64,000 nt of DNA from Euprymna scolopes (Eukaryota), in the NCBI GenBank assembly GCA_053919585.1, contig CM132795.1. One strand, written 5' to 3'. The notes under the pieces were generated by a model. That model saw only the letters and a list, made by a program, of their open reading frames with translations. It had not been told where the DNA came from and did not search any database. Below are positions 7,715 through 63,975 of the stretch, piece by piece (the stretch's first letter is position 1; every line of letters starts with the position of its first letter). A program made the translations under genes and the position numbers.

Positions 7715-8642
7715 TTTGAAGCAAAAACATAATAGTCCAAATAGAAAATGGCTGAAAATAGACAATTCAATTTCTCAAAATAATTTGGACCTCAAATTGA
7801 TCAATGAAAGAAATGCTTGTTTTGCTAACAGTATTGTTCAGAAAATTTACCACCTTCCTTTGTTGTCTAACATCATTAAAAGCATTCCAAACATTGATTT
7901 GCCAATTCAGCAATTAAAAAGATTGCTTGTCCCTGGCACTCACAGTGTTGCTGATCTTAGAGAATCAATCGGAGGCGTTTTTAATAGTGGCCAACAAGAA
8001 TGTGCTATTGCATTTTGGGAATCTTTGATAAACAAGTGCCCTGACAGTGCCAAACAATTATTCACTTTTGAAGAAAGTAAAGTGATGAAATGTCTTAGAA
8101 TACACAAACAAAACTGCCAAAGACTACAAGATAGTGAATGTAATTGCACCTTTAAAGTTGGCTGTGGGTTCCAAACCTTGCAGATTGCTGGAATACCACA
8201 GAGATTAGTTATTCAACTTCATCCTACTGATGGTCGACAGCAATTTAAAAGTTTGCTCAAAACTGATGCTTCAGTGCTCAAACATTGTATCAAATGTCAG
8301 CAAAATACTGAGCACTTGGAAAATGTCACTAGAACGTTTCCTACTGCAATGAAATATTTGTGTGTTCAAATAAATAGATTTATGTTTGAAAATTATAATC
8401 CTCGGCGAATTAATGCTGAAATTATGAATTTCAGTACAAAAAAACAAAATATTTTTGGAACAAATTTCAAAGTAAAAACAGCTATTCTGCACACTTTGAA
8501 TAGAGTCGATTTTAGGCATTATACTTGCATTGTTAGAAATAATAATAAGTGGAATATTGTCAGTGACACTAACTTTTCTAGTAATGTCAATTTTCCTTCC
8601 AAAATGTCCAATATTGTTGGCATTTTTTTTGAAAAAATATAA
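7614..8642 (+). CDS. USP / peptidase C19 (ubiquitin-specific protease-like) domain carried by the Helitron, probably the C-terminus of the RepHel polyprotein
   Basis: Cys box LINERNACFANSIVQ, QQECAIAF (QQD box-like), CxxC, LCVQINRF, His box ILHTLNRVDFRHYTCIVR...KWNIVSD; overlaps the helicase ORF at an A9 run (7687-7695). Confidence 0.75.
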   Translation: MICHRFLLVLLSLKVCHCTNRLINEKKTIVIDHDLKQKHNSPNRKWLKIDNSISQNNLDLKLINERNACFANSIVQKIYHLPLLSNIIKSIPNIDLPIQQLKRLLVPGTHSVADLRESIGGVFNSGQQECAIAFWESLINKCPDSAKQLFTFEESKVMKCLRIHKQNCQRLQDSECNCTFKVGCGFQTLQIAGIPQRLVIQLHPTDGRQQFKSLLKTDASVLKHCIKCQQNTEHLENVTRTFPTAMKYLCVQINRFMFENYNPRRINAEIMNFSTKKQNIFGTNFKVKTAILHTLNRVDFRHYTCIVRNNNKWNIVSDTNFSSNVNFPSKMSNIVGIFFEKI

Positions 8643-9472: not shown

Positions 9473-9630
9473 ACTTAAATTCAGAATTTTAAAAAAATTT
9501 CTGTAAATTTTTTTTATGTAATACTTTTCCTGTGATCATTAGCATGTTCTATTAATTAATAAATATAATTCTATTATTTTTATTGTTGCTTATGTTGTTG
9601 ATGAATAGAATTTTAAAAAGTTAGGTATTT

Positions 9631-10739
9631 TCTTGAAAAAGGATTTCGGCCTCAACAGAAAGATGTTCAACAAAATGTTTAACCATAAAATTTACCAAAA
9701 ACTATTAATATTAAACTATAAAAAGAAAGATACTAGAATTTAAGCAAAAAATATTTTATTTCAACTCAATCAGATGTGCCTTATACACTAATAAAAATGC
9801 AATTGGCATTTTGTTGAACTTTTTAAGATTTTAAATATTTATAAATTTTCTCATTATAAAAAACGATTATTATATTGATTATAATTTTTTGACAGAAGAA
9901 ATAAAATGAATTGCATAAAAAACATTAGAAGACAAATTTTTAAATCATAAGAAAAATCTAAAGTCACTAAATTATCAATAAAGTTTGTCATAATAATACA
10001 TTTATTAGATTAATTTTAATTTGGAAAGATAGAAGTACAGTTAAAACATCCAGAATCAGCGAATTCATTACATTTTATCATAATAAAAACGATTGTTTTA
10101 TTTCAATGCTATTGATAAGAAAACATTTGTTTTACTTGATTAAAATTAATTAAACATAGATTATATCTGTAGTATATAAATATTTTTTTATAATGAAACA
10201 ATTTATTAATTTTTGCTGATTTACGATTTTTTCATTGCCGGTTTTTATTTTGCAAATTAAAAATAATCCAATAATCTTTTTTGATAATGAAAAAATGTGC
10301 TGACAATTAAGTGATTTTAAATATTTGAATATTTTTTTAAATGAACAATAAATTAAAATCAATTTACTAAATAATCATTTTTTTCAAGATTTATTTACAC
10401 AATTTACTAATATTTATTGATATAATTGGATAATTTTGCATTGTTCTTCTAATGTTTTATATTCATTTTATTTCTTCTGTCAAAAAATTATAATCAATAT
10501 AATAATCGTTTTTTATAATGAGAAAATTTATAAATATTTAAAATCTTAAAAAGTTCAACAAAATGCCAATTGCATTTTTATTAGTGCATAAGGCACATCT
10601 GATTGAGTTGAAATAAAATATTTTTTGCTTAAATTCTAGTATCTTTCTTTTTATAGTTTAATATTAATAGTTTTTGGTAAATTTTATGGTTAAACATTTT
10701 GTTGAACATCTTTCTGTTGAGGCCGAAATCCTTTTTCAA

Positions 10740-10742
<3 letters not shown>
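9631..10742. repeat. Long inverted repeat, ~305-bp near-perfect arms (9631-9935 / 10441-10742)
   Basis: TCTTGAAAAAGGATTTCGGCCTCAACAG... is the reverse complement of ...CTGTTGAGGCCGAAATCCTTTTTCAAGA; the right arm abuts (TA)n. Confidence 0.9.
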
Positions 10743-10796
<54 letters not shown>

Positions 10797-10800
<4 letters not shown>

Positions 10801-12481
10801 TGGTGTCCCAACAGAAGTTGAAATTTGAATTCAACCGAAAGTACCACTCTACGATAAATATCGGCTCCTTACCTGTTTACGGTACAAAACTTTAAAATTA
10901 CCTTAAAAGTTTAAAAATAAAAAACATTCTGAGAGATTCTTTTCACCAACAAATTCATCAGAAGTAAATCGTTGGTACAAATCAAATACCAAAATAAATA
11001 AATACAACAATATTCCATAAAAGAGAAAAAGACTAAGATTGATATCCGTGTAAATTCTATCGAGGGCAAAAATGGGAATATAAATCGAGTAAATAATTAT
11101 GTGCAATCGAATAAAATATATTTACAAAGGGTGAAGGGTTTGGGGAAAAGTTAAAATGTATTACAGAATACGTCTAACGACTTCATAAATTCTTTCTGTT
11201 TACGGAGAGAAGGATTTCGTGAAATAAACGAAACTGACTCTAAAATTCTTAAATAATTTCGAGAGTAGGGCAGGTGTATCATTTTAAAGCACTTCATGTC
11301 TATTAGAAAACGCTGGGTTTTCAAGAAAGTGTTGACTGATGGTTGATTCCAAAGTGGAAACAGGCAAAAGCGATATGGCTAGTTTCTGATGGGATATACC
11401 GGCAAATTTCTGTTTACAAATGTAAGAAGGTTAGCCCTACATAGTCAGCAGCACACTAGCAATTAAACTTATAAATTAAATCACTTTGTGTTATGTAAGG
11501 TAAACTATACTTTGCGACCAAGGAAAATGCAGATTTAACATCAAAATAAAACAAAAGAACGCAAGGACAAGAAACAATTTGACACAGACCCGTCTACCTA
11601 AACACCTACCAGCATCTTCAATTAAATACTTTTTTAATAAATGGGACACTTGGAGGGAACAAAGGTTACAAAGGAATTATGTTTTTTAATTTTTTTTTTT
11701 ATTAATATAATTAATCAAATTTCCGGATAACCATTACGAATAAAATTTTCTTTAATATTTAATTCGTGTTCAAGTTTATTTGAGGAGCAAGTACTGATGG
11801 CTCTATACACTAGCGACATGATAAACTTAACCTTTCTGGAAGTAGGTGCAAATGTACGCCAATTTATGTATAAACTGGTAAAGGCCGGTTTACATTAATT
11901 GTCGTCAGAAAAGAACTCTAACTGTGTTCAATTAAAACGTTTAAGAAAGGCAAGCATCCGTCGTTCTCACTCTCCATAGTAAATAGTAACACTTTATGGA
12001 GAGAATTAAAGTTGTTGAAAAAGATTTTTGTTTCACTTTCATAGGCAAAAACTGCTAATGTGTCGCCGACGTATCTAAGATAAATGGAGGACTTCGATAC
12101 GTTATTAAACAATACCCACTCGTAAAACCCCACAGAAATATCAGCTAACGCATGACCTAAGAGACTTCCCATCTGAAACCCGTAGATCTGGCTGCGCATA
12201 ACATTACTGAAGCTAACTAACTGATTTAGTGCAAATCAATATAAGTTCAACAAATATTTTCCTGTGGAAATTACCATTATTAAGTGAATCGGCACGAATA
12301 GCAATGGTTTTTTGTGACACGACATTAGTAAATAAACTATCATAGAAACGTCGAATGAACACATAAAGTTATTCTCAACGTTGGGTTGCAAATTGTGTAG
12401 ATATTCTACAAAACCACTGAATCAGTGATGCAATATTTTGTGTATAGAGCATGAACTGGTTCTATAATGGCCAATGACTAC
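10797..12481 (-). mobile_element. Penelope-like element remnant (RT fragment)
   Basis: ORF 11918-12199 QIYGFQMGSLLG..LADISVGFYE..YLRYVGDT..LPFLNVLI resembles PLE RT (G..MGSPL, YVDD); runs into an assembly gap. Confidence 0.75.
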
Positions 12482-15340: not shown

Positions 15341-16304
15341 GTTTTACGAAAAATATATACATCCCTCCAAAAAAATCGTTCTTTGTTCCTTTAAACACAA
15401 AAAATACTTTTTCATTAATTAAAGAAAAATAACAAAAGTTGACAATAAATAAAGAGTAACTAAAACAGTAAATTTTATGAATTTATAGCGGCATAATCCG
15501 ACGGAATTTCGTCATCCACCGTGCGTTGCCGCGAGACTCACGCAAAAACGAGAATTAACTGCAGAAGTACCAAAATATTCTATTCTGTTAACGGAACTTT
15601 GATAATTACACATTGATTTATAATTTAGTTATTTACTACTAATCGAATATTTATGGAAATCAAAAATGCAATGGAATAGAATACAAGGGTACTTTTTAAA
15701 AATAATTTGATTACGAAATTTAATCCATCGGATTTTCAGCTCCTTTATAAACAAATAATCAGTTTACGTATTTTTGATAAGCATAAAAATGAATAAACGA
15801 ATTACTCCGTGAACCTTCAGCATTTGAAAAAAAAGTTTAGAAGTCTTTTAACAGTCGAATTAAAAGTCATTTGCGACTTTAAAGTTTTTAGCAAATAATC
15901 ATGTATGAAAAGATTTAAGGTTCTCGAAAAATATTGACATTCAATAGTTTTTATAAATAAACATTAAAAGTTATTTAACACCAATTTGCTACAGTTTTAT
16001 AAAAATTATTTCAATTCATGGTTTAATTAACAAACGCTACCGTATAAATTAAATTTAAATCTCAAAATCTTAGTGAAACAAAAAACAGCATTCTTTACAC
16101 GAAGGAAAAAAATGAATGCAAAACGACTCTCAGCAACGCCAAGCAGGAAGAGTTAATGAATCTATGATAGGTTGATTAAAAAGTAATAGTTCAAAATTAA
16201 TACTTAAAAGTTAATAGTTCAATATGATTCGTTTAAAGTTAATAGGTTTAGATTAAAAGTTCATAGCTGAAACTTAATAGTTCATAGTTAAAGTTAAAAA
16301 TTAA

Positions 16305-16500
16305 TATGATGGTTGTATATTTTTGAGATGAATATTAGTAATCATTTTTTGTATTATTTGAATTGTTTGGACTATTGTTTTCATCTTGGTTGAATAGAAT
16401 TGAGTGCGAAAACAACCAAGATGAAAATAATATTCCAAACAACCCAAATAATACAAAATAATTACTAATCCTTATCCCAAAAATATACAGACGTCATATA
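16305..16500. repeat. Inverted repeat of Penelope-like terminal sequence
   Basis: ...GACTATTGTTTTCATCTTGGTTG / CAACCAAGATGAAAATAATATTCCAAAC...; same family as the sequence following the hammerhead-like motif at ~18125. Confidence 0.7.
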
Positions 16501-16917
16501 AAAAACACGGAATGGACCCGAATTTATTTTTTTTTTAAATATATATAGACTCAGCGCTATTTGAATTGTGAAAGCAAAAAGAAACAAATATTTTTCACCA
16601 TTCACCAATAACATTTAGTCTAGAGTTGTAAGCCATGTTTAATTTCAGAACAGTTTCCGATTAGTTAGTTGTTCTACACAAGTCCTGGAGGTGAGTGGTT
16701 CTCAGTAGACAGTTCTTGAGTTGGAAGCCACAAAGCAAAAGATTCTTCATTCCGTGTTGACACGAAGAAAACATATGCGAAGTTGCTAAAGAAAAGGTTT
16801 AATCTTTATGTAGCAATTCTGGTTTCTTATTGGTTGGTAGCAGAACATGAATTAATTTGATTCATCAGTTCCTAGCAGCATCATTTATGAATAGAATCTC
16901 CCGATTATGCGGGATCA

Positions 16918-28927: not shown

Positions 28928-29695
28928 TTATATTTTCAATTTGTTTTTACATAAGCAGTAAATTACGCGATGACAGTAGGGGCCTAGCTGCCGGCCATGG
29001 CATAGGCGGCCGCAACTGTCCGTGCTATCAATAAGTATCCTTTTAGCCGTTTTAACGACCAATTCTGCTCTCCCGTTGCTTTGAGGGTAATATGCCGATG
29101 ATGTTCGTATCCTTATGCCCGAATTATCTAGGAACCGATTATATTTACTGGAGTCAAACGGTGGTCCACTATCGGTTGACAGTTCCTCCAGGACGCTGTA
29201 CGTGCAGAACCAGTTTCGTTGGACGTCACATGTGGCCTTGGCATTCTCAGACGACATCAGAGTGACTTCTACCCATCCGATTTATCTATCTGTATATACT
29301 AGGTTGTTTTTCTCTCGTAAGTCGAAAAAGTCCGTCACCGTCTTCTGAAATGGGAACTCTAGGTTCGAGGGCGACATTAGGGGTTCCCTAGGTTGTGATG
29401 GAGCCATTACGTTGCATACTTTGCACTGGGCCCGAGCCTGGCGAGTGCTCCCGTCCAGTACTGACCAGAACAACCGTTGTCTAGCGTTTGACAACATTCC
29501 ATTGACGCTCTGATGCGCCAAATGGAGCGATTCCAGTACATCCGCACATAGTTTTCTGGGTATAAGGATTTTATTTTCCATTATCGTCACCCCTTCCAAT
29601 TGTCTCCGGCAGTTCGTGTCGAGCTTTAGGGAAACCATTTTGTATGAAATTGGCGAGGGTATGGCATTCCTCGTCAGTAGCAGCTGCAGCCACAA
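28928..29695 (-). pseudogene. Gypsy integrase remnant
   Basis: HHCC zinc finger and D..D..E-region motifs split over two ORFs. Confidence 0.85.
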
Positions 29696-30121
29696 TCCTG
29701 TCCCATGTTATTGCCCTTAATTTGGGATCCTGCTCATAGGTGGAGTTAAATGACGCTCTTATGGCACTATCCTTGGTTTGTGCGATATCCTTTTCGTTTG
29801 CTACCTCCTGGCTTAATGTTACTGGGCATCTTGATGTACAGTCTGGTGCCGCATTGAGTTTGCCAGGGAGATGCTTTATTCAAAATCTGTACATCAAGGA
29901 CCGTTCTTTGAAATTGAACAGTCTTGGGTCCTTTATGTCCTCCAGAGCTTTTTCCGAGAAGATCTTCACCAAGGGCTTATGGTCTACGGTGACTAACAGC
30001 TCTGCGCATCCCAAAACGAATATGCGGCATGCTTCCAGTCTGTAGACTAATGCTAATGCATCTCCTTCAACTGGTGCGTATCGGGACACTGCGTCATCAG
30101 TAAATCAGAAGCCGGCTAGGA

Positions 30122-31205
30122 TTAATCTCCAGTGGTCCTCACCACACTTCGATCTGGCTTCGGTGGCACAGTTGCAATGCTTCTGGAAAAGAAAATATCC
30201 CAAGCCACTCCCTCAGACAAAGAGAAGTCCCTCAACAAACAAGTTGGTCTGTTCATTTCGAAGGATCTTACACCGTTCTCGATCTTTTGTGTGATCCTTC
30301 TTTTCGAGTCTTCGAAAATTCGATCGAGTGTGCTGTCCCAGTAGAACTTTCGACTTTTTGTCTTCAGCAGCTCTCGAAACGGGGCCATTACTTCGGCCTG
30401 AGAAAAAGTGTAGGCTACCTGATTTACCATTCCAAACCAGGATCTTATGTCAGTTACATTTTTTGGTGTCGGAAAATTCCGTATTGCTTCAGTCATTTTT
30501 GGGTGGGTTTTATTTCGTCTTCCGTTATCAAGAACCCGGCAAATTCTACCTCTTTTTTATGAAGTGAAATTTCTGAGGGTTGAATATGATACCATTTTTG
30601 CTGCAGTTATTTATGTACTCCATAGTATGCCAAAATGATGTTTCAATAGAGTCGTTCCATAGTATCGTATCGTCTATACATCTTGTTTTCCTGGGCATAT
30701 CTACTGTGATATTGTCGAATCTGCGTGTATATGTGTCTCTTGACGCTTGGAATCCTTGTAGTGCCCGAAGATAACGGTATCTACCCCATTCCGTGATGAA
30801 AGTAGTTGCATCTCTTGCCGATGGGGAGAGTGTTAGGCTATGATAGCCATTCCATGCATCCAAGACAGGTTTTCTAGTTTTCGCAGGCACCAGCGATGCC
30901 TGGTTGAAAGGAGACGGTGTATAATGGGTTTCTCATAGGATAGCGGCGTTGAGCTTTTGTAGGTCTACCGTACATCTCGGTGACCCGTCCTTTTTCGGTG
31001 CAACCACCATTCTGGAGCACCATGTTGTAGGTGTACCCACTGGTACAGGTTCTATGATGCCCAATGCTACGTCTCGATCGAGGTCCTCCTTAAGTCTTTT
31101 CTTCCAATGGTGCGGGACAGGGATTGGGGTGTGGACAGCTTCGGGGTTTTCCTTTTTTCGCCTGCGGCCGTTTATGTGGGCATACATTGAATGCACTGGA
31201 CTCAA
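30122..31205 (-). pseudogene. Gypsy reverse transcriptase remnant
   Basis: ORFs 30933-31205, 30546-30890 and 30122-30496 are consecutive, frameshifted RT/connection segments. Confidence 0.85.
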
Positions 31206-32544
31206 AATGCTCCTTTATCCATCGTTCCAATCGAGGTCTGTTTTCTTTTGTAGGGGCAAAATGGGTAGGTGGGAGAGTAATTCTTTGTGGGCACCTACAT
31301 GGTGCGTTTCCGCCGTCGCTAGTTGCCACGTTCTGCTGGAAAGTCGGGTCTCAAAGTTCTCTGGTAACAAGGTTTTTTAGGGCGGACTCGGACAGGCAGA
31401 AATCTGATGTATTTTTTATACATACATAATCTGACGTGGTTCCCGCGATCCTACTCTGATTTTAGCAAATATCACGCCTTTTATGTTTAATAGGTTTTCT
31501 ATGATTACCTAAATATGGTGACCGGTCGGTACTAGATATTTGTCTGGAAACTTCAGAATTGTTCTGGATTCTGCTCCGACCACTCCCGCTGTAGATCTGT
31601 TGCTGGACCCCTGCTTCGGTTTTCGGCAGACTTTTTAAATGTCCAGTCAATCCGCAATTGTGACAAGTCGGCTTTGCTGTTGGGCAGCCCCTCGTCCTTT
31701 GAGCCGTCGGGGTTTAAGCTCGTTCCACACCATTTACAGGGTTCAGTGTTTCTCGGAGTTGTATACAGCCTGGTTCTCCCGAGGCCGCTGTCTGCGGTCC
31801 GACCTCTGTATGCTCGTTGTAGTAAGGTATACACTACTGTGGAGATGGGGGATAGATTTGTCCGCGGTCTCTAGGCTGACAAGCCTGTTGAATTTTTCTT
31901 CCAGTGTCATAAGCGTCGCAGCCTCCGACAGCACCTTGCTTTGATGCTCCAAGTTTGCCAGCGCTGCCACCATTTGTCCTGTTACTATATCATTGGAGTA
32001 GCTGACTTCCCGACCGCATCCTATCTCGTTCGGACAAGTCTCTGAAAAGTCGCAGAATTTTGCGACTGATCGAAGTCGTGCCACGAAGTCCATAACAACC
32101 CCCCTCTTCTGCCTTACGGAGTGGAATTCTTGCCGGTACACTTCTTTGTGTAGGCTTCTGACGGTTACGTGCTTTATGTGTCGTGACAACTGTTCTTCTG
32201 TGACGGAGTTCAGTATTTTAGCTCCTACCATGTCAAACAACAGCCTGTTTACTTCTGGGGAATGGGCCGTTATCAGCTCGTTTCTTAATGCTGTTGGCTC
32301 TGTCAACTCACACATCTCCTTGTATCTATTCAAAGAGTCAATGAATATGGGCAAGTCACCATCACTTGAGTTCTGTTCTATGGCTGGTCTGTCAGGTCTC
32401 CTTCAAAGTGGCTTGCTGGACTGTCCTCCGTCTCTCTGCAGGGCGGTGTTCTCTTGCTGTCGCTCGAGGATATGCTGAAGTTATGTCTTTGTTCGTCCAT
32501 ATTCCAACGTTTTTAGCAGCAGGTTTTCTATATTGGCGACGCCA

Positions 32545-32722
32545 TGTAAAGTCTCGGCAAGACGACGTATATTTGAAAGCAAACCCGTTGCCGTGAATGT
32601 CTTGTTTATATAGCCCACTGTCGCCTCTCATGCAAGCGGGTGAGTCTACTTTTATGGAGGTGTGACGCCAAGACCACCTCGGTCTTGTAATTGGGCGTCT
32701 TGGGTTCGATTCCACCTCTACA
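32545..32722 (-). repeat. 5' LTR of the Gypsy element, with PBS at 32535-32544
   Basis: Minus strand reads TGTAGAG...CTTTACA followed directly by TGGCGTCGCC; gag starts ~40 nt downstream. Confidence 0.65.
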
Positions 32723-33199
32723 ATTATATTTTTCTGCTGGGACGAACAAAGTATTTTTTAAATAAAATTTAGCAAAGTAGGTTTCATGGCTAATAAAATG
32801 GTACGATTATATATTAAATTTGGCTAGTGGAAAGAAAGTTAAATTTTTCAGCTTAAATACTACGTAGGTATGACTTTGAAAGTCCAACAAGATATATTCA
32901 TGTGTTAAATTACCGGCAATAATGAATACAGTGCGGCTCGTTTACATGCTCGTAACTTATGAACAAGACAAGGAAGATAATAACATCTAAAATCTGAAAC
33001 AATAACTATTAAAACGTGTATACGTTCAGTATCTCTTGTTATAACATTATTATTTTAAAAGGCATGCAGTAAATGTACGCATCGCCGCACATTGCATGCG
33101 TCGAGCGTTATTGATTACCTTAAATTGTTATGCGACTGATGTGCCGAGTGATGGCTAACTTGAGTCCTGCAATTATTTTCGTGGTGTTCTGGCACTATA

Positions 33200-35879: not shown

Positions 35880-36106
35880 AGGCCTGTATGCTTGTATTTC
35901 GTATGAATCAAATGATTGTTTTATTAGCATTGATTTCCCTGACATCTTTCTAGTCAGAATTATTTCAAGAAAGGCAGCGCGTACGTCTGCGTGGGACGAC
36001 GTGATTGTTCCCAGCATCTCTAAGTGAAACTATTTCTGTGGAACGAACTGGATTCGAACTTGACACACCCAGGTTGTCAGTCCGTGTCGTTAACCACAAC
36101 CATTGT
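35880..36106 (-). mobile_element. tRNA-derived SINE
   Basis: Minus strand GTGGTTAACGACACGGACTGACAACCTGG..AAGTTCGAATCCAG (B box); related to the copy at ~54310. Confidence 0.55.
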
Positions 36107-36108
36107 AA

Positions 36109-37543
36109 CATCTCCCTCTCAGTACAGACCAATAAGTCTCCTGTGTGTTATGAGTAAGTTGCTGGAATCCATATTAAATAGAGAAATAGTCAACCACCTC
36201 AGCAGGAATAACCTTCTTAGTGACACACAATATGGTTTCCGCTCTGCAAGATCTACCACAGATGTGCTGACGGTTATATCCCACAGGATTAGTGAATCTC
36301 TTGACAAAGGCTTCCTTTCTAGGGCAATTGCTCTTGACATATCAAAGGCCTTCGACAAGGTATGGCATAAGGGTCTACTTCACAAGATTTCCAGCTACGG
36401 TATAACTGGAAATGTTTTCTCAATCATTAAATCATTTCTCTCCGATAGGTTCATAAGAGTAGTGGTAGAGGGACAAAAATCGGAGGCTTGCAATATAAAT
36501 GCTGGAGTCCCTCAGGGGTCAATCCTGGGCCCAACTCTCTTCCTGATCTACATCAATGACCTCCCTAAACACATACTTAAATCATTCGTTGACATCTATG
36601 CTGATGACACGACCATCTACGGCAACACATCAAAGGCTGTAAAATGACAGTTCTCTCTGATTCTCTCTCCTCTGATCTCGAGCGCGTGGTTCAGTGGGGG
36701 AAGATGTGGCTGGTTACCTTTAATGCATCCAAAACCAAACTCCTATTCTTACATCATCAACGCTCTGATCCCCATCTGACATCAATTGTGATGGATGGCT
36801 CTCGTCTGGGTGAGGCCCCGTGTTTTGACAAGCTTCTGGGTTTGACCTTTACTCCTGATCTGAAATGGAACACGTACATCAAGTCTGTTGCCAAGGTCGC
36901 TGGAAAGATGGTATGATCCTTCTACCGCTCCAGAAGATATCTCACTACTGATCCAATTCTCTATCTATATAAAAGCCAAGTACGTCCAAGGATGGAATAC
37001 TGTTGCCATATCTGGGCAGGAGCTGCTAAAAACAGCCTATCCTGCCTTGACAGAGTACAAAATAGACTTCGTGGCTTAGTGGGGGATGCCCTTTTCTCTA
37101 CTCTGCAACCTCTCTCCCACAGAAGAGACGTTGCGAGCCTATCCTTGTTTTATCGTTATTTCCATGGCAGGTGCTCGTCTGAACTCCAATCTCTGGTCCC
37201 CCCTCGCCAATCTTTCACGAAAAAAACCCGTCTAGCTGAATACACTGTGAAAAATTTCCCCCACTCTATATCTGTGCCTAGATCAAAACGCGGATTCCAT
37301 GAACAAAGCTTCTTTCTTAGAACTGTACGCCTGTGGAACTCTGTTCCGTCTGCCTGCTTCCCACCGGACTACAGCTTGGATGTGTTCAAGTCCAACGTTA
37401 ACAAATTCCTAATGAACCGCCCCCTTAAGTAAACATTTCATCAAATCTCCACACTAACGTAATGTACTTGCAATAACCCTTATCCCTGAGTGGCTTCCGG
37501 GCCTTGATAAGTGGTGATCACTGTGTAAAAAAAAAAAAAAAAA
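36109..37543 (+). mobile_element. 5'-truncated CR1-group LINE
   Basis: YRPISLL, DISKAFDKVWH, GVPQGS, YADDT motifs; 3' UTR and poly(A); frameshift/stop at ~36645 and 36914. Confidence 0.92.
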
Positions 37544-39934: not shown

Positions 39935-40330
39935 GATACTATTCTCATATTAATCTTATTTTTCTCAGCGTTTCGGCCGATGTAACCTCCGATCTTTTTC
40001 AGTGCAAGAAATTCTTTAAATACAATTGCGAATTACTTAGGACTTCTACTCGGTCGTGGTCGACGGAACGAGAGCATGATACCACCAAAGATTTAATAAA
40101 GGGTTCCGTTCCAAATTTCGTGCAGATTCCCGAGTCTTACATAAAGATTCCCGAGTTCGGCAAGAAACATCTAAAAACCTTCGGAGGTTACATCGGTGGA
40201 AACGTTGTGAAAATAACATTCAAGATGAGAACAGTAGTCTAAACGAATAATTGTGACATTTGGAATATTTGCAAAACTGTTCGCATCTTGGTTGTTATTC
40301 TCACAACGTTTCAGCCTTCTTTAGGTGTAG
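39935..40330. repeat. Inverted Penelope-like termini with three degenerate hammerhead motifs
   Basis: CGGAGGTTACATCGG..GAAACGTTGTG..AAGATGAG on both strands; the CUGANGA box is mutated. Confidence 0.6.
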
Positions 40331-41013
40331 CTTGTCGAACTCGGAAATTATCATGTCGAACTTAAATCGATACAGAATTTCATATTGAACACCGTATTTA
40401 ATCAAAGGTGCATGTTTTTGTTCTGTTAACCATGACCGGATAAAAGTTTACAGTGTTTTTTATTCTTATTTACTATAATGATGATTGACCTTCAACCTCC
40501 CAAATTATCATTTAGAACTGATTATACGTAACACTTTTATCCGTTGCATCATGTTCCCATGTGACTACGATGTAGGAAAACCATCCAAATTGTGAACAGT
40601 AGTTCCAATAATCCAAATCATACGAATTACTAATCCGTATCTAAAAAAAATAATCAAGATGAGAACAGCAGTTTGAATAATCCAAATAATACGAATGACA
40701 TATAAATTTTTTTCATATCGATACGTAAAAACGTGTACAAATATGTGAAACAGACTTTTTCCCTTGCCCCACGTTAATGACATTATGTCTCTAATAAAAC
40801 GCTTTTTATAAAATGCTTATGAATATTATTAAAGAAAAAAAAACCGTGAAATAATACGATTGAGGAATGATATATCCTGCATATAAATGTACAGGAAAGA
40901 GAAAAAAAAGGGAGTAACAAATTAATACACATACATGTATAAATATACATATATACATATCTAGCTATATTAGCATTCTGGATTATCCAATAAATGTTGG
41001 CCAATCGCAGAAT

Positions 41014-42130
41014 CTAAATTATGGTGGGTAGGATTGAGAAGAGTTCTATTTTATTACGAAAACCCGAAGATACATGTTGCCCAATTCTTGTTTCAAAGTG
41101 GACGCTTGTTCGCCCGACATAGACAGCATCACACTGACGTTGGAATTTATATATAATATCATTAAGTTTAGTTAGAGGCAAATCGTCCTTTTCGAAAAAA
41201 GACAATGCAGGTTTCGTATTGAAAATCATGTAGAACAGACGGAAAACAATTGTTGATAGTCTGCTTAAGTTGGTTTATGAGAGGGACATATTTTTCTCTA
41301 ACCCATGGCAACTTAAGATATACAATACTCTTTGAAGGGGCAAAGGTAATACCTTTGTTAAATTGACTATTTTTAAATCTAATACATTTATCAATAAAGA
41401 ATTCGGGATAGTCGTTATTGACTAGAATTTCTTTAATTTTAGTAAATTCAGTATCTAGTCGACAATGGGAAAAAATTACTAAGGTCCTATGTACTAACGT
41501 ATAAATCAACGTCAACTTGGTGGTTTTAGGTGTGAATGAACATCATTCAGAATATAAATCTGTAAAGGTTGGTTTTCTATATATAGAGGTAAGAAAACCG
41601 CCTCTGGACCTTTCGACCTGCACGTTGAGGAACGGGTTGTCTTTTTCCATCTCCATAGTGAAAGACAAAGCGTGATGTAAGGAACTAAGACGTTCGAAGA
41701 ATTCTAACACCATGTCCTGAGAAGGAAAAGCCGCAAACGTATCATCCGCATAACGAAAACAAAAAGCATGAGTGTTATGTGGTGATTTTAGAAGTTTTAA
41801 TTCATAAAACCCAACGAAAATGTTGGCAAGGATAGAACCTAAGGGGCTACCTATGGAAACTCCATCAATTTGTTGGTACAACACGTTGTTGAAACTAAAC
41901 TCGACGGACTTTGTGCAAAGAGAAAGAACTCCAGTAAAATATTTCTCCGGTAAAGTGGGAGGAATATGTTCACTACAATAAGGTGCATCGCAGTAAATAG
42001 TAAGGGTCTCATGAATAGGCACATAAGTAAATAAACTGGGAATATCAAACGAGCAAAAGAAGGAATTTTTTAAGTACAAGAATCAGAGACACAATAAGTA
42101 AAATAGAATGTAAAATATTAACAACTCCAT
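41014..42130 (-). mobile_element. Penelope-like element, RT core + GIY-YIG endonuclease (3' part), decayed
   Basis: SFDIPSLFT, QIDGVSIGSPLG, RYADDTF, IYRKPT; IIYKF..CDAVYVGRTS (GIY-YIG). Confidence 0.88.
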
Positions 42131-42345: not shown

Positions 42346-45300
42346 ATGGAGAGTAGAAAACGCATTGTGGATGCGTTATCGGCAGCTCCTGTTACTCTCG
42401 CTTCTTCTTATTTGTCCCTCAGTCCTCATTTTTTTAAATGAGTGATTTTTCGGACAAAGGGAGAAGAAAAAGCTGTTTTCTAGGTTGGCAGTATTTTTGC
42501 GAACAGTTGGCTGAGATGGCGGAAATTTTCTGTTTCTATGTCTATCCTTGTAGCCATGTCACTAGTAAGGGTGCTGGAGGTAAACGTTTTGTCTGGGCTG
42601 ACGTTATCCGCCTGATAGTCAGGGACCCGAACCTTGGATTAACCACTAAGGAGGCTGTCCTATCAGCAGGTGCAAAGTACTGGGGCTGCTGTATTGCCAT
42701 TTGGTGAATGGATTCTGGACCATGCAGTAGCTTCTGGTGGGGCCTCTCGATGCCATACTAGTGGGTAATTGTTACGGCTTTACCTTATCATTAGCTACAA
42801 ATAAAATAAAAAATTCTTCGTTTCTTTTTCTCTCTTAATTTCCCCTCTCTGTCCTGCTCTAAGTAAATCTGTCGACCTAGTCCACAAATTCCAAAATTTC
42901 ATCATGACAAGTTTCAAGAAAAAATACACGATTAAACCCGGTTCTCCAACTTCCAACGTAGACCCCTACTACCATGTCTCCTTCTCCAACATCAGGGGTC
43001 TTCGTTCTAACCTTCCAGAGGTTGAAACCCAATTACAGGAGACTAAACCAGACCTTTTATTTTTAAGTGAAATTGGCATTGGACAGGCTATTTCCCTAGA
43101 TGAGTTTGCAATTTCAGGATACTCTAACTTAACTTCTAAATCTGACCCCCAAGATCGCCATGGGCATGGAATATGTGCCTATATTAAAGATAGCTTTCCA
43201 TGTGGGAGGGACATCTCCAGGGAAGATCCTAACTTACCCTATATGTGCTTCCGGGTTGCTTTAGCTCACACTACTGCATTTATATTTACTCTCTATCGCC
43301 CCCACAACAGCGGAGTTACTATCTTTCAAAGCATATCTGAGAAAATTGACCAAGTCCTTTCTACTTATCCTTCAGCTAACATTCACGTATGTGGAGACTT
43401 CAATGTTCACAACGTCGAATGGTTGACCCACTCAAACAAGACCGATGATGAGGGGAGGTTCTGTCATGATTTCTCCATTGCCTATGACCTCACTCAGATT
43501 GTTCAGGAACCTACCCGTGTGCCCGATAATGACGGCCAGTATGCGAGCCTACTAGACCTTTTTCTCACAACTTGCCCTGAACTATGTTCAGTTTCTGTTC
43601 TGTCGCCTCTTGGATCTTCCGACCACTCTGTTGTATCAATTAAGATAAAAATGAAATGTAATAAGTCCCCAGACGTACCTCTTCATCGTACAGTATATCG
43701 ATACACTAAGGCTGACTGGGATAGCTTCCGTACATTTATATCTGATCTACCTCTGCATTCCATGTTTAAAAAGGATGTGTCCTCTATAGTATTAGACCTA
43801 ACTGAATGGTTAACTGTAGGTATTGACCATTTCATACCTTCTAAAAAGTTTCAGCAAAAACCTAACAGCCAGCCATGGTTCTCTCCAGAATGTGCTGCTG
43901 CCATTGCGCACAGAAATCACTTTTTCCACTGCTTCAAACGTAATAGATGTATGGAAACTAAAGCCGTTTTCAGGACTGCCAGCAACCATTGTAAGAAAGT
44001 AATAAGGAACGCAAGAGTGTTATATGCTCAATCTGTTAAGTCCAAAGTAGCTGAGCAGAGGCTTGGTTCCCACCAGTTTTGGCAAATAGCAAACAGAATC
44101 CTGAATAGAAGCGTGTGCTCCATCCCAACTATTATCAATGGACCTGAGGTAATCTCGTCAGCATCAGACAAAGCCAAACTCTTTGTCAAGAACTTTGCAG
44201 CTAATTCTACCCTTTGCGACCAAGACCGCCAACCTCCAATATTTCCTCCTGTATCAGAAAACACGCTATGTGATATACGTATATCTGTACGTGATGTTGC
44301 GAAGCTAATCAAAAACCTTGATTCGAGTAAAGCAACTGGCCCTGATGGTATTCCAATTATAGTACTCAAAAAACTTCAACCTGAATTAGCGCCCATACTT
44401 ACAAAACTGTTTAAACGTTGTCTTAAGGAGAATAGTTTCCCATCTCCCTGGAAAATCTCATCAGTATGCCCTGTATTTAAGAATTCAGGTGATCGCTCAT
44501 CCCCCTCTCAGTACAGGCCAATAAGTCTCCTGTGCGTCATGAGTAAGTTGCTAGAATCTGTGTTAAATACAGAAGTAATCAAACATCTCAACAAAAATAA
44601 CCTTCTTAGTGACACTCAATATGGTTTCCGTTCTGCTAGATCTACAGCAGATGTCCTTACAGTTATATCGCATAGGATTAGCAAATCTCTCGACGGTGGC
44701 AATCTTTCTAGGGCAATTGCTCTTGACATATCTAAAGCCTTTGATAGGGTATGGCATAAAGGTTTACTTCATAAGATCGCTAGCTATGGTATAGCTGGAA
44801 AAGTCTTCTCAATTATTAAATCATTTCTTTCTGATAGGTTCATAAGAGTAGTAGTTGAGGGGCAAAAATCAGAAGCTCACAGTATTAATGCCGGTGTCCC
44901 TCAGGGATCCATCCTGGGCCCAACTCTTTTCCTGATCTACATTAATGATCTTCCAAATCATATCCTTACATCATTTGTAGACATTTATGCTGACGACACT
45001 ACCATCTATGGTACCACATCTAAGACAGTAAACGACCAAGTTCTCTCCAATTCTCTCTCCTCTGATCTTGAGCACGTAGTACAATGGGGAAAGGAGTGGC
45101 TGGTTACTTTTAATGCATCTAAAACCAAGCTTCTCTCTTTACATCATCAACATTCTAATTCACATTTGTCATCAATTGAAATGAATGGCTCTCGTCTTCA
45201 GGAGGCCTCAAGTTTTGACAAGCTTCTGGGCTTGACCATTACTCCTGATCTTAAATGGAACACGTATATCAAATCTGTTGCCAAGGCCGCTGGAAAAATG

Positions 45301-45964
45301 GTGGGATCTTTCTATCGATCCAGTAGATATCTCACTGCTGATGCTATTCTCTACCTATATAAGAGCCAGGTACGTCCAAGGATGGAATACTGTTGCCACA
45401 TCTGGGCAGGAGCTGCTAGTAAGGACTTGTCCTGCCTTGATAGAGTTCAAAATAGACTTCGTAGCCTCGTAGGAGATGTCCTTTTCTCCTCCTTGCAACC
45501 TCTATCTCACAGAAGAGATGTTGCGAGTTTGTCTCTGATGTATCGTTATTTTCATGGAAAGTGTTCAACTGAGCTTCAATCTATGGTCCCCCCTCGCCAA
45601 ACTTTCACAAGAAACACTCGTCTAGCTGTAAACACTATCAATAATTTCCCCCACTCTTTATCTGTGCCTAAACCTAAACGTAGATTCCATGAACAAAGCT
45701 TCTTTCTTAGAACTGCACGCCTGTGGAATTGTCTTTCGTTTTCCTGCTTTCCGGCTGACTACAATATGGTTGTGTTCAAGTCTAACGTAAATAAGTTCTT
45801 GATGAGCCGTTCCATATAAGTTATTAAATTTACCAAATTTTCATTACTAATGATTACTATATTGACCAATTTCTACTGTACACTCTTTAACCCTTATCCT
45901 TGAGTGGCCTCTGGGCCTTGATAATGTGGTGATGCCTTTGTAAAAAAAAATAAAAAAAAAAAAA
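42346..45964 (+). mobile_element. Full-length-looking single-ORF CR1-group LINE
   Basis: ~560-nt putative 5' UTR after a T run, 971-aa ORF, 3' UTR and poly(A) tail at 45942-45964. Confidence 0.9.
42904..45819 (+). CDS. LINE ORF2: apurinic-like endonuclease + reverse transcriptase, intact
   Basis: APE motifs NIRG, LSE, GDFN, LDL, SDH; RT motifs KATGPDGIP, YRPISLL, QYGFR, LDISKAFD, GVPQGS, YADD, LGL; no stops. Confidence 0.95.
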   Translation: MTSFKKKYTIKPGSPTSNVDPYYHVSFSNIRGLRSNLPEVETQLQETKPDLLFLSEIGIGQAISLDEFAISGYSNLTSKSDPQDRHGHGICAYIKDSFPCGRDISREDPNLPYMCFRVALAHTTAFIFTLYRPHNSGVTIFQSISEKIDQVLSTYPSANIHVCGDFNVHNVEWLTHSNKTDDEGRFCHDFSIAYDLTQIVQEPTRVPDNDGQYASLLDLFLTTCPELCSVSVLSPLGSSDHSVVSIKIKMKCNKSPDVPLHRTVYRYTKADWDSFRTFISDLPLHSMFKKDVSSIVLDLTEWLTVGIDHFIPSKKFQQKPNSQPWFSPECAAAIAHRNHFFHCFKRNRCMETKAVFRTASNHCKKVIRNARVLYAQSVKSKVAEQRLGSHQFWQIANRILNRSVCSIPTIINGPEVISSASDKAKLFVKNFAANSTLCDQDRQPPIFPPVSENTLCDIRISVRDVAKLIKNLDSSKATGPDGIPIIVLKKLQPELAPILTKLFKRCLKENSFPSPWKISSVCPVFKNSGDRSSPSQYRPISLLCVMSKLLESVLNTEVIKHLNKNNLLSDTQYGFRSARSTADVLTVISHRISKSLDGGNLSRAIALDISKAFDRVWHKGLLHKIASYGIAGKVFSIIKSFLSDRFIRVVVEGQKSEAHSINAGVPQGSILGPTLFLIYINDLPNHILTSFVDIYADDTTIYGTTSKTVNDQVLSNSLSSDLEHVVQWGKEWLVTFNASKTKLLSLHHQHSNSHLSSIEMNGSRLQEASSFDKLLGLTITPDLKWNTYIKSVAKAAGKMVGSFYRSSRYLTADAILYLYKSQVRPRMEYCCHIWAGAASKDLSCLDRVQNRLRSLVGDVLFSSLQPLSHRRDVASLSLMYRYFHGKCSTELQSMVPPRQTFTRNTRLAVNTINNFPHSLSVPKPKRRFHEQSFFLRTARLWNCLSFSCFPADYNMVVFKSNVNKFLMSRSI

Positions 45965-46870
45965 GTTAAAAGTAACTCAGTGAGCCATTGGTCGAGGGCA
46001 TGTTGAGCGGAACCAACCATAGATAAAATAGGTCTACAAGGCACATTATCTTTATGAATTTTACAAGACGATAAAGTCGATGTCTTAAGGATATAGTGGA
46101 TCGTATTTTCTGATAAATCTCTTTTTTAAATAAGAAGTGCAAGCGTTTTTGCGATTTGTTTTCAATACTCAAAGTATTATCACACGAGTCGACTGAGCTG
46201 AGTTTGAGAAATTTAGTAGTGTCATCTTAAATATTTGGCATCTTATTAAAATAATCAGTTCGGTTAGGACGACTACACTGGCACCTTTATCAGGTCTGGA
46301 AAGATAAATATTTTTACTTCTCTTTAAATTAAGAACAGTAGAAAAATAGGATTTTTCCCAGACAAAATTCCTCGAGTCAATCGACGAATTGCTATAAGAA
46401 TGTGCAGTACTAGACGAATTAGCTTTCATAGCTGAAAGAGTATCCGAGGAAAGGGGTGTGATGAGAAAACAAGATTTCAAATTCAGTAAGAACCTCAATA
46501 TCACTGATGCATTCAGGAGGAACACAAAAATTTAAACCTTTAGAAAGAACAATTTTCTCAGAGTAAGACAGGATATATATATATATCACATTTAAAAACA
46601 AACAAAACGACTTTATTTGGGAATATCAAGTAGGGCGATCCCCTGCTATAAATGTGGTATTATGGTGACTGAGAGCTCTATCTAAAATTGGCATAGTAAA
46701 CAAAGATTCAGTGACAAGAATGGCAATAGACCAGCCAAGTTTTTTGATCGACCTTGTGCATAATTTTGTTTTGCCGATATTTTGTTCTCATAATAAAATA
46801 TTTAAATCCAAATTCTCATGTGAAATCTGTTTTAAAGGTTACAAATTTCATTCCGATTTTGAAGATTTGC
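45965..46870 (-). mobile_element. Penelope-like element, 5' part, split from 41014-42130 by the LINE
   Basis: LSKGLNFCVPP, RPDKGASVVVL, RPILSMVGSAQH..WLTELL: PLE motifs that precede the RT core. Confidence 0.8.
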
Positions 46871-48714: not shown

Positions 48715-49110
48715 AAAGCTCCAATCTCTGGTCCCCCCTCGCCAATCTCTCACGATAAAAACCCGTCTATCTGAAACCACTGTCAATAATTTTCCCCACT
48801 CTTTATCTGCGCCTAAATCAAAACGTAGATTCCATGAACAAAGCTTCTTTCTTAGAAGAGCACGCCTGTGGAACTCTCTTCCGTTTGCCTGTTTCCCACC
48901 TGACTACAACTTGGATGTCTTCAAGTCCAACATAAACAAATACCTGATGAATCGCCCCCTTAAGTAAGACACTTTATCAAATCTCCAATACTAACGATTA
49001 CTACGATACTATCACATTGATTAATGTACAGGCAATAACCCTTACTCCCGAGTGGCTTCCGGGCCTTGATAAGTGGTGACCACCATGTAAAAAATAAAAA
49101 TAAATAAAAA
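48715..49110 (+). mobile_element. 3' fragment of CR1-group LINE (subfamily of 36109-37543)
   Basis: Encodes ..RFHEQSFFLR..LMNRPLK*, with matching 3' UTR and A-rich tail. Confidence 0.88.
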
Positions 49111-49434
49111 GGTGTTAACTTTCAAACAAAAGACACTGATATACAAATTTTAAATAATATATCATACTGAAAAACTTAATTTAGTCTCTTATTGTGCATC
49201 CTGCTATTCAGCCGGCACTCCACTAAAAAAACGATGGTCAATGACACTGCAATTAAAACTACCTTGACGAAAGTGATCCTAAATCGAAAGTTATTACATG
49301 AGAAAGAGTCGTACCTGCGGCAGCCACGGATGAAGAATGCAGAACCTTAAGAGATCTTATTCAAAAATAATTCAGCAACTTCCCACACATGATTCGAGTT
49401 TTCTCGGTCATACGTGAAGAATTATATTGCCTGG

Positions 49435-52660: not shown

Positions 52661-53054
52661 TTCTAAATAAAAATAAAAAATAAACAAAAAATATAATTAA
52701 AAGAATCGTTTTCAGCATCGAAAAGCGATCCAAATCTTTACGATTCAGATACCGATTCCGATACCCCAAAATGTTCCGATTGTTCCGATTCCCGATTCCG
52801 GTCTAAACATTATGAATGAAAATATACGCACATAAACTTACTTTATATTGTCACAGACTTCTAAACCTTCAAACCTAAATTATACTTCTTAATGCGATTC
52901 ATTGAAATGAGTTTTATTGTTTTTTTGGTATTTGCATTGATGTATCTATCCCTTAAGAGTTAATCAAATCAATTGTAAAACTGGCAACAGTGGCTAACAT
53001 TCTTTTGAATGCAATTCTGAATTTTGGAGATGAGATGTGAATGTTCGTGTTAAG

Positions 53055-53245
53055 TTAATTAATCTTACTATTATTCTCATTTTGGATGTTATTAGCACAA
53101 CGTTTCGGTGGCTGCAACCTGCAACCTTCTTCAAGTTGAAAAAGAAGCATGTTTTCAACACCCGAAGAAGGTCGCAGATTGCAGCGACCAAAACGTTGTG
53201 CTAATAACACCCAAGATGACAATAATAGTCCGATTAATCAACATA
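53055..53245. repeat. Inverted pair of degenerate Penelope-type hammerhead motifs
   Basis: TTGAAGA..GAAACGTTGTGC (minus) and CCGAAGA..AAAACGTTGTGC (plus), each with different core mutations. Confidence 0.65.
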
Positions 53246-54307
53246 ACACAAGCATTATTTTGTCTGTTTAGCATAAATATGTCTGATTAACAAAGTCAAT
53301 ATTTACTTGCCACCCCACAAGTGTAGATTACGACACAAGATCGTTCTTATGCAGAGAAAATGCAGCTCTCCAAAAAGGGGCACTGGATTAGGATAAAAAT
53401 TATAATTAACTCAGTCTAGAAAGATTTATTTTTCAGTGAACGAAGAAAGAAAAGATTAAATGTCGTATCAGATTATACACTAAACTTTGCCATTAGTCAA
53501 AAACACTAACGAACCGCAAAGGTTGAAATAAACATGTTCCTCTTTTATGAGTGAATCATGAAAATATATTTAAAAAAACAATGAACACTTGAGTTGCATA
53601 TAAACTGAGATCATATGTTCCGAGAAAAAAGCAATTGAACATTCAGTAAAACAAATGTCTATTAAATGCCAACCGTTTCAGCGATCAACGCGTAGATACA
53701 AAAAAAAGTTAATCGTTTAATATATGTAAAGAAGCTATTGGATAACGGTGAAAGTTTTGGTAATAGAATTGCAAGCATTTCAAAGGGGGGCCCAGGGACT
53801 TCAAAGGTTGGCATGAAAATGTTCTTAAAGAGAAACAAATGCGAGGGTAAACCTAAGAATTGCGTGTCTTGTATTGATAAAAACAAATGTTTAAAGAATA
53901 AGCAAGTTTAAAAGAGGTTCTATTACTAATGGCACAGTTTGAAGGCATTACGGTTTATTGTCATTGCCTTTAGAATTTTAAGTCTTCTCAAGGGGAGACA
54001 ACTGAGTGTGGAGTGTACTGAATATTTCCGTAATGGACTGTAGATTAGCGTAATGGTAACCAGCGTGGCCTATTAAGTCAAGAATGACGAGAGGAAATGT
54101 TATAGGATCTGTTGTTTTAACTAAGACACCACTACTATTGAACCCGTGCAGTTTTCCAATTTATGTATAGAATGACGCCTGCAGATCCAAGGGTTATTAT
54201 CATGAAGTTGACATAAATATATGTTTCAGCAACCAATAACGAAGAAAGTGTTCATATGACTAACACTACAAAAATGTAATTATATTCCAACCCTGTCATT
54301 AGGATAC

Positions 54308-63023: not shown

Positions 63024-63070
<47 letters not shown>

Positions 63071-63147
63071 GGTAATTAGTAAAAACCTGAAGAAAGTGTT
63101 CAATACTATTGCAGAGCAAATATGCGTTTTATTTTTTTACCATTTTA

Positions 63148-63218
63148 TCTGTTTAGTTACACATGTTTCGGTTACCGAATCGTATTAGCGATCCAGTAAC
63201 CTCGTCAGACTTTACAGA
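63148..63218 (-). ncRNA. Type I hammerhead ribozyme (intact); mutated inverted copy at 63226-63296
   Basis: UCUGU-AA-AGU CUGACGA GGUUACUGGAUCG-cuaaua-CGAUUCGGUAACC GAAA C-augu-G UA^ ACU-AA-ACAGA: all core nucleotides and helices I-III present. Confidence 0.85.
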
Positions 63219-63439
63219 AAGGTTTTCTGTAACGTCTGACGAGATTACTGGATCGCTAATACGATTCGGTAGCCGAAACATGTTTAACTAAACAGATAAA
63301 ACGGTAAATATAAAATAAAACGTATATATTAGACATTAACATGAGATTATAGGTTTGTATAAATACCTGTTCACATACACCTTTTTACGATAAAGCTAGA
63401 ACCGAGAATTAGACAGAATCGAGCAATTGCATCGACAAC

Positions 63440-63498
63440 GGACAACGTCAGACCCAAAGTGGGTTTCGATGTATTGCATCTCATCAGCGACGTGCTCC
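63440..63498 (-). ncRNA. Type I hammerhead ribozyme (intact)
   Basis: ACGUCG CUGAUGA GAUG-caaua-CAUC GAAA CCCA-cuu-UGGG UC^ UGACGU. Confidence 0.9.
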
Positions 63499-63778
63499 GA
63501 CATAGGCGCGAACCCAGGTAGTCGCACTCATGAAATGTGCAATACTGACGACCTAACGATATGGGCCACGGCGCAATCTATTGGCCATGCCTCGATTTTT
63601 AAATTCTTATATTTTTATCCAGTTCTACATTCTACGATGTGACAAGCAACGCGTCATATACAACCAAGATAGTTACTGCTGGTATGCAGGCGGCAGATAT
63701 CCATCTACATATTAACTGACTTAGGTCGTCAGTATTGCACATTTCATGAGTGCGATGACCTGGGTTCGCGCCTATGTC

Positions 63779-63837
63779 GGAGCACGTCACTGATGAGATG
63801 CAGTACATCGAAACCCACTTTGGGTCTGGCGTTGTCC
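63779..63837 (+). ncRNA. Type I hammerhead ribozyme (intact)
   Basis: ACGUCA CUGAUGA GAUG-cagua-CAUC GAAA CCCA-cuu-UGGG UC^ UGGCGU. Confidence 0.9.
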
Positions 63838-63911
63838 GTTGTCGATGCAATTGCTCGATTCTGTCTAATTCTGGGTTCTAGCTTTATCGTAAAAAGGTGT
63901 ACGTGGACGGG

Positions 63912-63975
<64 letters not shown>

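Follow-up and report, generated by a model that had tools for sequence, protein, structure and literature searches.

The window, a stretch of 64,000 nucleotides (G000:C13:101680001-101744000) in a genome of 5.9 Gb and 925 contigs, has a GC content of ∼36% and is rich in repeats. At the locus described here, two 5'-truncated arms of a 485-nt non-coding unit lie back-to-back on opposite strands (Table 1; unit positions, u1-485, were defined on locus L003). The stretches 63358-63556 and 63721-63919 are inverted copies of each other and are 95.5% alike over 199 nt. The preliminary description placed an inverted hammerhead pair at 63358-63919. The pair stands but its bounds do not, as the 164-nt 'spacer' and the 32-nt tail at 63326-63357 are element sequence, and it follows that the tRNA-like head is internal to the unit. 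The left arm carries mixed subfamily letters (u252-256 from one subfamily, the remainder from another), possibly a trace of template switching. The studied locus abuts the untailed TA end of a neighbouring insertion (63068-63325), which is a second inverted pair with minimal hammerheads (helix III of the minus arm is palindromic) and has its own tail, ∼50 nt in length, on one side only.

Table 1. Features of the inverted pair and its immediate surroundings, in window coordinates
Feature	Position	Strand	Remarks
Left (long) arm	63326-63719	-	u92-u485; 5'-truncated, tail-terminated; BLAST 95% to L003 unit
PLE-type tail, 32 nt	63326-63357	-	u454-485; left arm only
tRNA-Thr-derived head	63493-63575	-	u236-318; A-box-like 63568-63557; degenerate B box 63514-63504
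Predicted antisense lock	63519-63589	-	u222-292; long-rod pairing with hammerhead; duplex -53.5 kcal/mol
Type I hammerhead, left arm	63439-63499	-	predicted cut after C63451
Right (short) inverted arm	63721-63919	+	about u255-u453; without A box, without tail
Type I hammerhead, right arm	63778-63838	+	predicted cut after C63826
(AT)n target tract, untailed end	63915-63972		read from sequence
Neighbour: inverted terminal-repeat remnant of Poseidon-type PLE	63068-63325		up to 90% to end of L250

Each arm contains a complete type I hammerhead, as first described. The core CUGANGA/GAAA/NUH (here CUGAUGA, GAAA and GUC) is accompanied by a 6-bp helix I, a 4-bp helix II and a helix III of the form ACCCA-cuu-UGGGU. 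Rfam model HH9 matches both arms, with E values of 1.4e-4 and 1.5e-3 that correspond to scores below the gathering score. When isolated 61-nt pieces were folded, the minimum-energy structure was the hammerhead in both cases, with a stability not above that of shuffles (z 0.3 and -0.3). Helix I runs on through an internal loop to a CGGA/UCCG pairing, and CGGAGC therefore belongs at once to the 3' strand of the tRNA and to distal helix I, in agreement with the overlap noted earlier. Helix I does differ between the arms while staying paired, as had also been pointed out, but each difference amounts to one change on one side of the helix, in the left arm, and such variants are rare among family pieces (5/177 and 8/177). 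No compensatory double change was seen in helix I among the pair types listed for the 177 pieces, and the hammerhead helices of these pieces showed no compensatory changes. For these reasons we do not take the differences in helix I as a sign of selection, and helix I covariation was discarded. Core and helices are fully intact in 63/177 pieces. A candidate minus-polarity hammerhead opposite the plus one was rejected, since the CTGACGA and GAAA present on the other strand have neither the order nor the spacing of a hammerhead.

In copies elsewhere in the genome, the 485-nt unit reads head-to-tail. The 27-nt hammerhead core has at least 1,428 exact genome-wide matches, compared to 0 with reversed-pattern controls, which puts the copy number above a thousand, and the tandem junction has 443 exact matches, again with 0 for the controls. 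A pattern search for related hammerhead families with this helix III gave 1,373 matches, the first 100 listed all belonging to the 485-nt-unit family. Copies are dispersed across many chromosomes. Members of the four main subfamilies differ by 2.3-5.0% from their own majority letters, and the closest copies by 0.6%. The unit contains no frame of more than 80 codons and no ORF encoding RT plus GIY-YIG. Arrays are mostly 1-1.5 units in length; long ones are rare, with 2.1 units the longest seen (L300). Two complete hammerheads one unit apart, an arrangement that could release a monomer, occur in 10/89 junction-selected loci, and the two consecutive complete-hammerhead units expected of a retrozyme are thus present at the family level. 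As to tandem status, then, the family includes partial tandems, but at the window locus none of the hammerheads is in tandem and no monomer can be released. Because tandem hammerheads are missing there and the arms differ by 4.5%, the window locus is probably a dead-end copy. The earlier suggestion of an element 'possibly still active' may fit the family, given copies down to 0.6% from the subfamily majority, but probably not this locus.

We then asked how copies are inserted. After removal of 44 duplicates from 229 fetched element loci, 185 unique loci remained. Both orientations are held in 132 of these 185, and in 21/29 loci selected by the hammerhead alone. On the 3' side, copies end at either u453 or u485. 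When 34 pairs having an interrupted end were set aside, 81/87 classifiable inverted pairs showed one tailed and one untailed end (p 3e-18). Beyond the tailed outer ends, (AT)3 was found in 112/132 cases, compared to 10% of random places. Subfamily letters are common to both arms in 34/47 pairs, versus 30% at random, a pattern of letters that fits a single event for the two arms. Craig et al. (PMC8557442) describe partial tandems, an inverted 5'-truncated arm, a 30-40-nt tail at one end and an AT-rich target as hallmarks of Penelope-like elements (PLEs). In our family we find a partial tandem with variable 5' end, an inverted 5'-truncated arm with a one-end tail, and an AT-rich or (TA)n target. 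The Penelope link, named only in passing in the preliminary description, is hence its best-supported part, resting on the one-sided tail in 81/87 pairs and on the (AT)n targets. As copies land in AT repeats with a Penelope footprint, the element likely borrows a Penelope enzyme. For an anole PLE, Frangieh et al. (PMC11167929) showed the tail to be the stretch separating two internal start sites, with both target strands extended. By analogy, we infer that the 32-nt tail here marks the distal one of two reverse-transcription start sites.

Intact 863-aa Poseidon-type ORFs are numerous in the genome and form tandem and inverted arrays (the labels Poseidon-type and Neptune-type are ones we take to apply from recognised motifs, not from a tree). 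This 863-aa family inserts into a (TA)n target and has a one-sided tail in 7/7 pairs seen; the same target and the one-sided tail make it a live driver candidate. Its tail resembles that of the unit, but the likeness falls short of significance (P 0.2). Among 42 Poseidon-type and 49 Neptune-type loci, we found no autonomous PLE with a terminus homologous to the unit. Alternatively, the unit could be no more than a terminal repeat (pLTR) detached from an as yet unfound autonomous PLE, with the copies as truncated products of that PLE. Most PLE insertions consist of 5'-truncated pLTRs, and a derivation of retrozymes from pLTRs has been reported, according to the available text of bioRxiv 10.64898/2026.07.22.740005, and the neighbour at 63068-63325 is such a remnant. 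However, the sequence upstream of u1 is u485 of the 485-nt unit again, not an ORF, no coding sequence is common to the 77 free 5' flanks examined, and a tRNA-derived segment is not among the pLTR features described in the portions of the literature at hand. We therefore regard this explanation as improbable. Young intact Poseidon-type PLEs with 863-aa ORFs, a tandem period of ∼2.74 kb and inverted arms were seen at L273-L284 (e.g. G000:C22:39863500-39883499). Decayed Poseidon-type PLE coding fragments lie in the window at 11166-12468, 40973-42082 and 45985-46574, all on the minus strand, and further self-inverted repeats, possibly fold-back insertions of PLE type, at 9626-10746, 16301-16502, 40199-40312 and 53040-53256.

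Neither ARAGORN nor Rfam called a tRNA in the head, and relaxed ARAGORN (ps85) did so in 27/141 heads versus 24/109 controls. The idea that the head is not tRNA-like was nevertheless overturned by direct alignment to the genome's own tRNAs, for which we used a panel of six sequences (Thr, two Arg, two Ser and one tRNA-like). The alignment to tRNA-Thr(UGU) reached a z of 7.6 with the majority subfamily and of 6.0 with the window's left arm, and 0/1000 shuffles reached the head's best-of-panel score. Head and tRNA-Thr share 30/45 ungapped identities through the anticodon arm (p 3e-8), and GGGTTCG and GGAGC match on the 3' side. These alignments, taken together, show that the head is tRNA in origin. 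Because the panel held six sequences, tRNA-Thr is the closest one tested and not the proven source. A tRNA-like head had been assigned to both arms; the likeness is real (z 6.0), but the half with GCGCCG and the A box occurs in the left arm only. The right arm begins at about 63721 without it, so that the head is half-missing there. At G000:C11:1.68-2.16 Mb (L153-L182), tRNA-Thr(UGU)-like genes form a very large tandem array, and many of them carry GGGTCCGAATCC in the T arm; this array is the closest tested relative of the head. A genome-wide search with a tRNA box pattern returned 1,349 matches, the first 100 listed being mostly dispersed tRNA-Arg(ACG)-like copies.

Does the head act as a promoter? 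The element could be a true SM-alpha-type one, in which a working internal Pol III promoter in the upstream unit's head initiates transcription near u230-237. Such a scenario is compatible with PLE mobilisation and differs in the promoter step only; we give it a substantial chance, though one short of even. The homology to tRNA-Thr speaks for it, as does an A-box-like TGGCCCATATGG in the majority subfamily. On the other hand, an A+B box pair equal to the window's arises in 35% of shuffles. The A- and B-box consensus includes an invariant B-box A. Here the B box reads GGTTCGCGCC, and the invariant A is present in 0/147 pieces. The D-loop GG is found in 62/147 and has been lost in younger subfamilies, so the expected conservation of the A and B boxes across copies does not hold. 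None of the four main subfamilies contains a T4 run, as would suit Pol III, but we discarded this sign, since its probability rises from 0.04 by base shuffle to 0.34 by dinucleotide shuffle.

The 5' ends of copies bear on the same point. Second-lap 5' ends crowd at u221-266 (18/20, versus 13/45 for first-lap ends; Fisher p 6e-6, for a range picked post hoc). In the SM-alpha model, as outlined in PMC6765202, an upstream unit transcribes the next one, and the crowding is suggestive in that it is what this model would predict. However, first-lap 5' ends show no wall at the head, and neither sample shows a peak at the tRNA start, u230-240 (1/77 where 3.2 were expected, and 2/119, below expectation). 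A hard transcription-start wall at the head, proposed when 0/21 copies extended past u221, was refuted by genome-wide pair patterns. The tandem pair is carried by 11 loci at u264 and by 6 at u177 (67 matches were obtained in the wall test, and 61 unrelated minisatellite ones were dropped). Given these counts, the wall is much softer than in the sample: only a soft one is left at u221-266, and seven loci extend past u221. Against a working Pol III promoter, as originally envisaged, stand the missing B-box A, the lack of the D-loop GG in many pieces and the lack of a sharp 5' boundary at the head. With the head internal, half-missing in the right arm and devoid of the B-box A, Pol III activity is putative.

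The same lack of a fixed 5' end at the head, where ends at u230-240 fall below expectation, argues against a classical SINE, the other label under which the family had been placed. In that case the copies would depend on a LINE or, alternatively, would be a satellite or palindrome arising at the DNA level, with the hammerhead incidental. The head is tRNA-derived, and an intact 1004-aa endonuclease-RT LINE ORF resides in the same window, but copies have no poly(A) and are dispersed over many chromosomes. In view of the one-sided tail and a pile-up of ends at the ribozyme cut (below), RNA-level events of PLE type are needed, and we consider explanations of the LINE or satellite kind highly improbable.

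To look for traces of ribozyme activity, we scored 5' ends at u360-364, the cut being predicted after u360. First-lap arms, chosen by their partner, had 8/79 5' ends in this interval (1.0 expected, p 1e-5). Among second-lap ends chosen by the junction the count was 10/77 (1.2 expected, p 6e-7), and further second-lap ends gave 5/34 (0.56 expected, p 3e-4). This is most simply explained if many of the templates started at the ribozyme cut. The recurrence of the pile-up in three separate samples suggests a fossil record of RNA self-cutting in the cell, and we infer from it that the hammerhead cleaves itself in vivo. Second-lap ends pass the upstream cut in 23/77 cases and one locus spans 2.1 units; hence some of the RNA was uncut, rejoined or jumped across.

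Secondary structure may explain why. When the unit or the window's left arm is folded in silico, u222-292 is predicted to base-pair with the hammerhead in a single long rod. The duplex energy given in Table 1 compares to -34.1 ± 4.6 kcal/mol for shuffles, with 0/500 shuffles reaching it, for rod boundaries picked after the fold was seen. Imposing the hammerhead structure carries a penalty of 1.3-1.5 kcal/mol when the head is absent, of 3.9 for the right arm and 7.8 for the left arm, and of 9-13 for the L003 unit, whose head is complete. Relative to tRNA-Thr, the head carries 15 changes: a rod pair is gained through 7 of them, 3 are at positions that pair in either state, and 5 lie outside any pair; when tRNAs were randomly mutated, 15/2000 paired as strongly with the hammerhead. 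In the L003 fold, rod pairing survives the head's subfamily changes at u227 and u242 but not those at u252 and u276. If Thr is near the true source, these predictions suggest that a tRNA was remodelled into an antisense lock on the hammerhead. Templates with an uncut downstream hammerhead would then be expected, since the head is predicted to lock the ribozyme. According to Cervera and de la Peña (PMC7229834), blocking by complementary sequence occurs in plant retrozymes, viroids and some mussel RNAs; in the available text of that study it is not described for most animal retrozymes.

Our preferred reading is that the locus is, with high probability, a back-to-back double copy of a tRNA-headed non-LTR retrozyme unit, likely copied in trans by the RT-endonuclease of a PLE. 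RNA would be transcribed from partial-tandem loci, beginning within the upstream unit's head or close to it. Only some of this RNA would be cut by the hammerhead, since pairing with the head can lock the ribozyme. The PLE enzyme would nick both strands of an (AT)n tract, and cDNA would start inside the RNA at u453 and u485, 32 nt apart, one per strand. The two cDNAs would stop at random or at a ribozyme-made 5' end and would be joined 5'-to-5', which would yield two inverted arms, only one of them ending in a tail. Copies of more than one unit would need a tandem, circular or end-jumped template. The anatomy, the copy statistics and the tRNA homology are observed, the lock is predicted from folding, and the PLE driver and the promoter are deduced indirectly. 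A bolder and rather unlikely extension is a Penelope-driven, SINE-like class in which a captured tRNA-Thr gene still serves as Pol III promoter and has also been turned into an antisense lock setting the cut frequency. If so, template length would depend on how much RNA is cut, left uncut or rejoined, and this balance would be recorded in the 5' ends of genomic copies.

The family is thus likely an SM-alpha-like, PLE-mobilised retrozyme. The comparison with SM-alpha made at the outset is apt as a description (tRNA origin, order of parts, more than 1,000 copies), but intact A and B boxes are not found. The likeness concerns architecture as described in PMC6765202, PMC2770079 and PMC8490949. In SM-alpha and Sj-alpha, too, a type I hammerhead is immediately preceded by a tRNA-derived segment (PMC6765202). 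In both cases the tRNA segment ends at the 3' end of the cut monomer, units occur in tandem and copy number is high, with a unit of 335 bp there compared to 485 here. By the same accounts the SM-alpha head derives from tRNA-Gln, whereas the present one is tRNA-Thr-like, is uncalled by ARAGORN and Rfam, and has a degenerate B box. Our family further differs from SM-alpha, so far as the latter is described, in its full 5-bp helix III, its non-trematode host and a head predicted to lock the ribozyme. The clear PLE insertion signature seen here is unreported for SM-alpha in these sources as available.

Non-LTR retrozymes have been proposed to be non-autonomous PLE derivatives (Li et al., bioRxiv 10.64898/2026.07.22.740005). 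From this preprint and PMC7229834, in the parts available, those of metazoans resemble our family in being non-coding, with a type I hammerhead, head-to-tail units, GC <50% and proposed PLE mobilisation. They form arrays, whereas copies here mostly span 1-1.5 units and add the tRNA-derived segment, and the 485-nt unit exceeds the 170-400 nt RNAs of PMC7229834. Retrozymes are described as giving abundant linear and circular monomer RNA; the RNA data on our family are poly(A)/oligo-dT reads and contigs. The predicted hammerhead block is a further difference. Endonuclease-bearing PLEs, as characterized in PMC8557442, share with the family the hallmarks listed above. According to PMC11167929 they also have a hammerhead upstream of two internal start sites, but it is minimal there and full here, and the ORF is absent here.

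The role of hammerheads in PLE-type elements is called unclear in PMC8557442. In the anole study (PMC11167929), as far as its available text goes, no reads ended at the cut and uncut RNA was the main substrate in vitro. The genomic copies here, by contrast, mark the cut in their 5' ends and so record it as a template end, which bears on that role. With two mapped start sites in a minimal 485-nt non-coding substrate, the role becomes testable with an intact PLE protein encoded in this genome. The family also brings together two things described separately, namely the SM-alpha-type combination of tRNA and hammerhead and PLE-mobilised retrozymes, and suggests that a tRNA may be recruited as a ribozyme lock. 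We found no paper on this combination in a literature search whose scope excluded subscription journals, Repbase and preprint supplements.

In four raw runs, made from poly(A) or oligo-dT libraries, 70, 94, 23 and 119 reads lay on locus L024, in both orientations; runs with small word shares were left out. No pile of read starts or ends on L024 was seen in these four runs, and transcript contigs held nothing informative on the family. This is weak RNA evidence, and libraries of this kind would miss non-polyadenylated monomers and circles. At L024:2264-2282 in run X24, an A>G cluster occurs in 9/10 reads of one orientation, making it a candidate for A-to-I editing of fold-back transcripts.

Several other repeats are present in the window. 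The 1004-aa endonuclease-RT LINE frame is open at 42805-45819 (+) and has decayed relatives at 1048-1484, 36024-37543 and 48717-49113. Broken gag/pol frames resembling an LTR retrotransposon lie at 29282-32757. At 5174-8642 (+), PIF1-like helicase frames are followed by a further open frame, in a Helitron-like arrangement.
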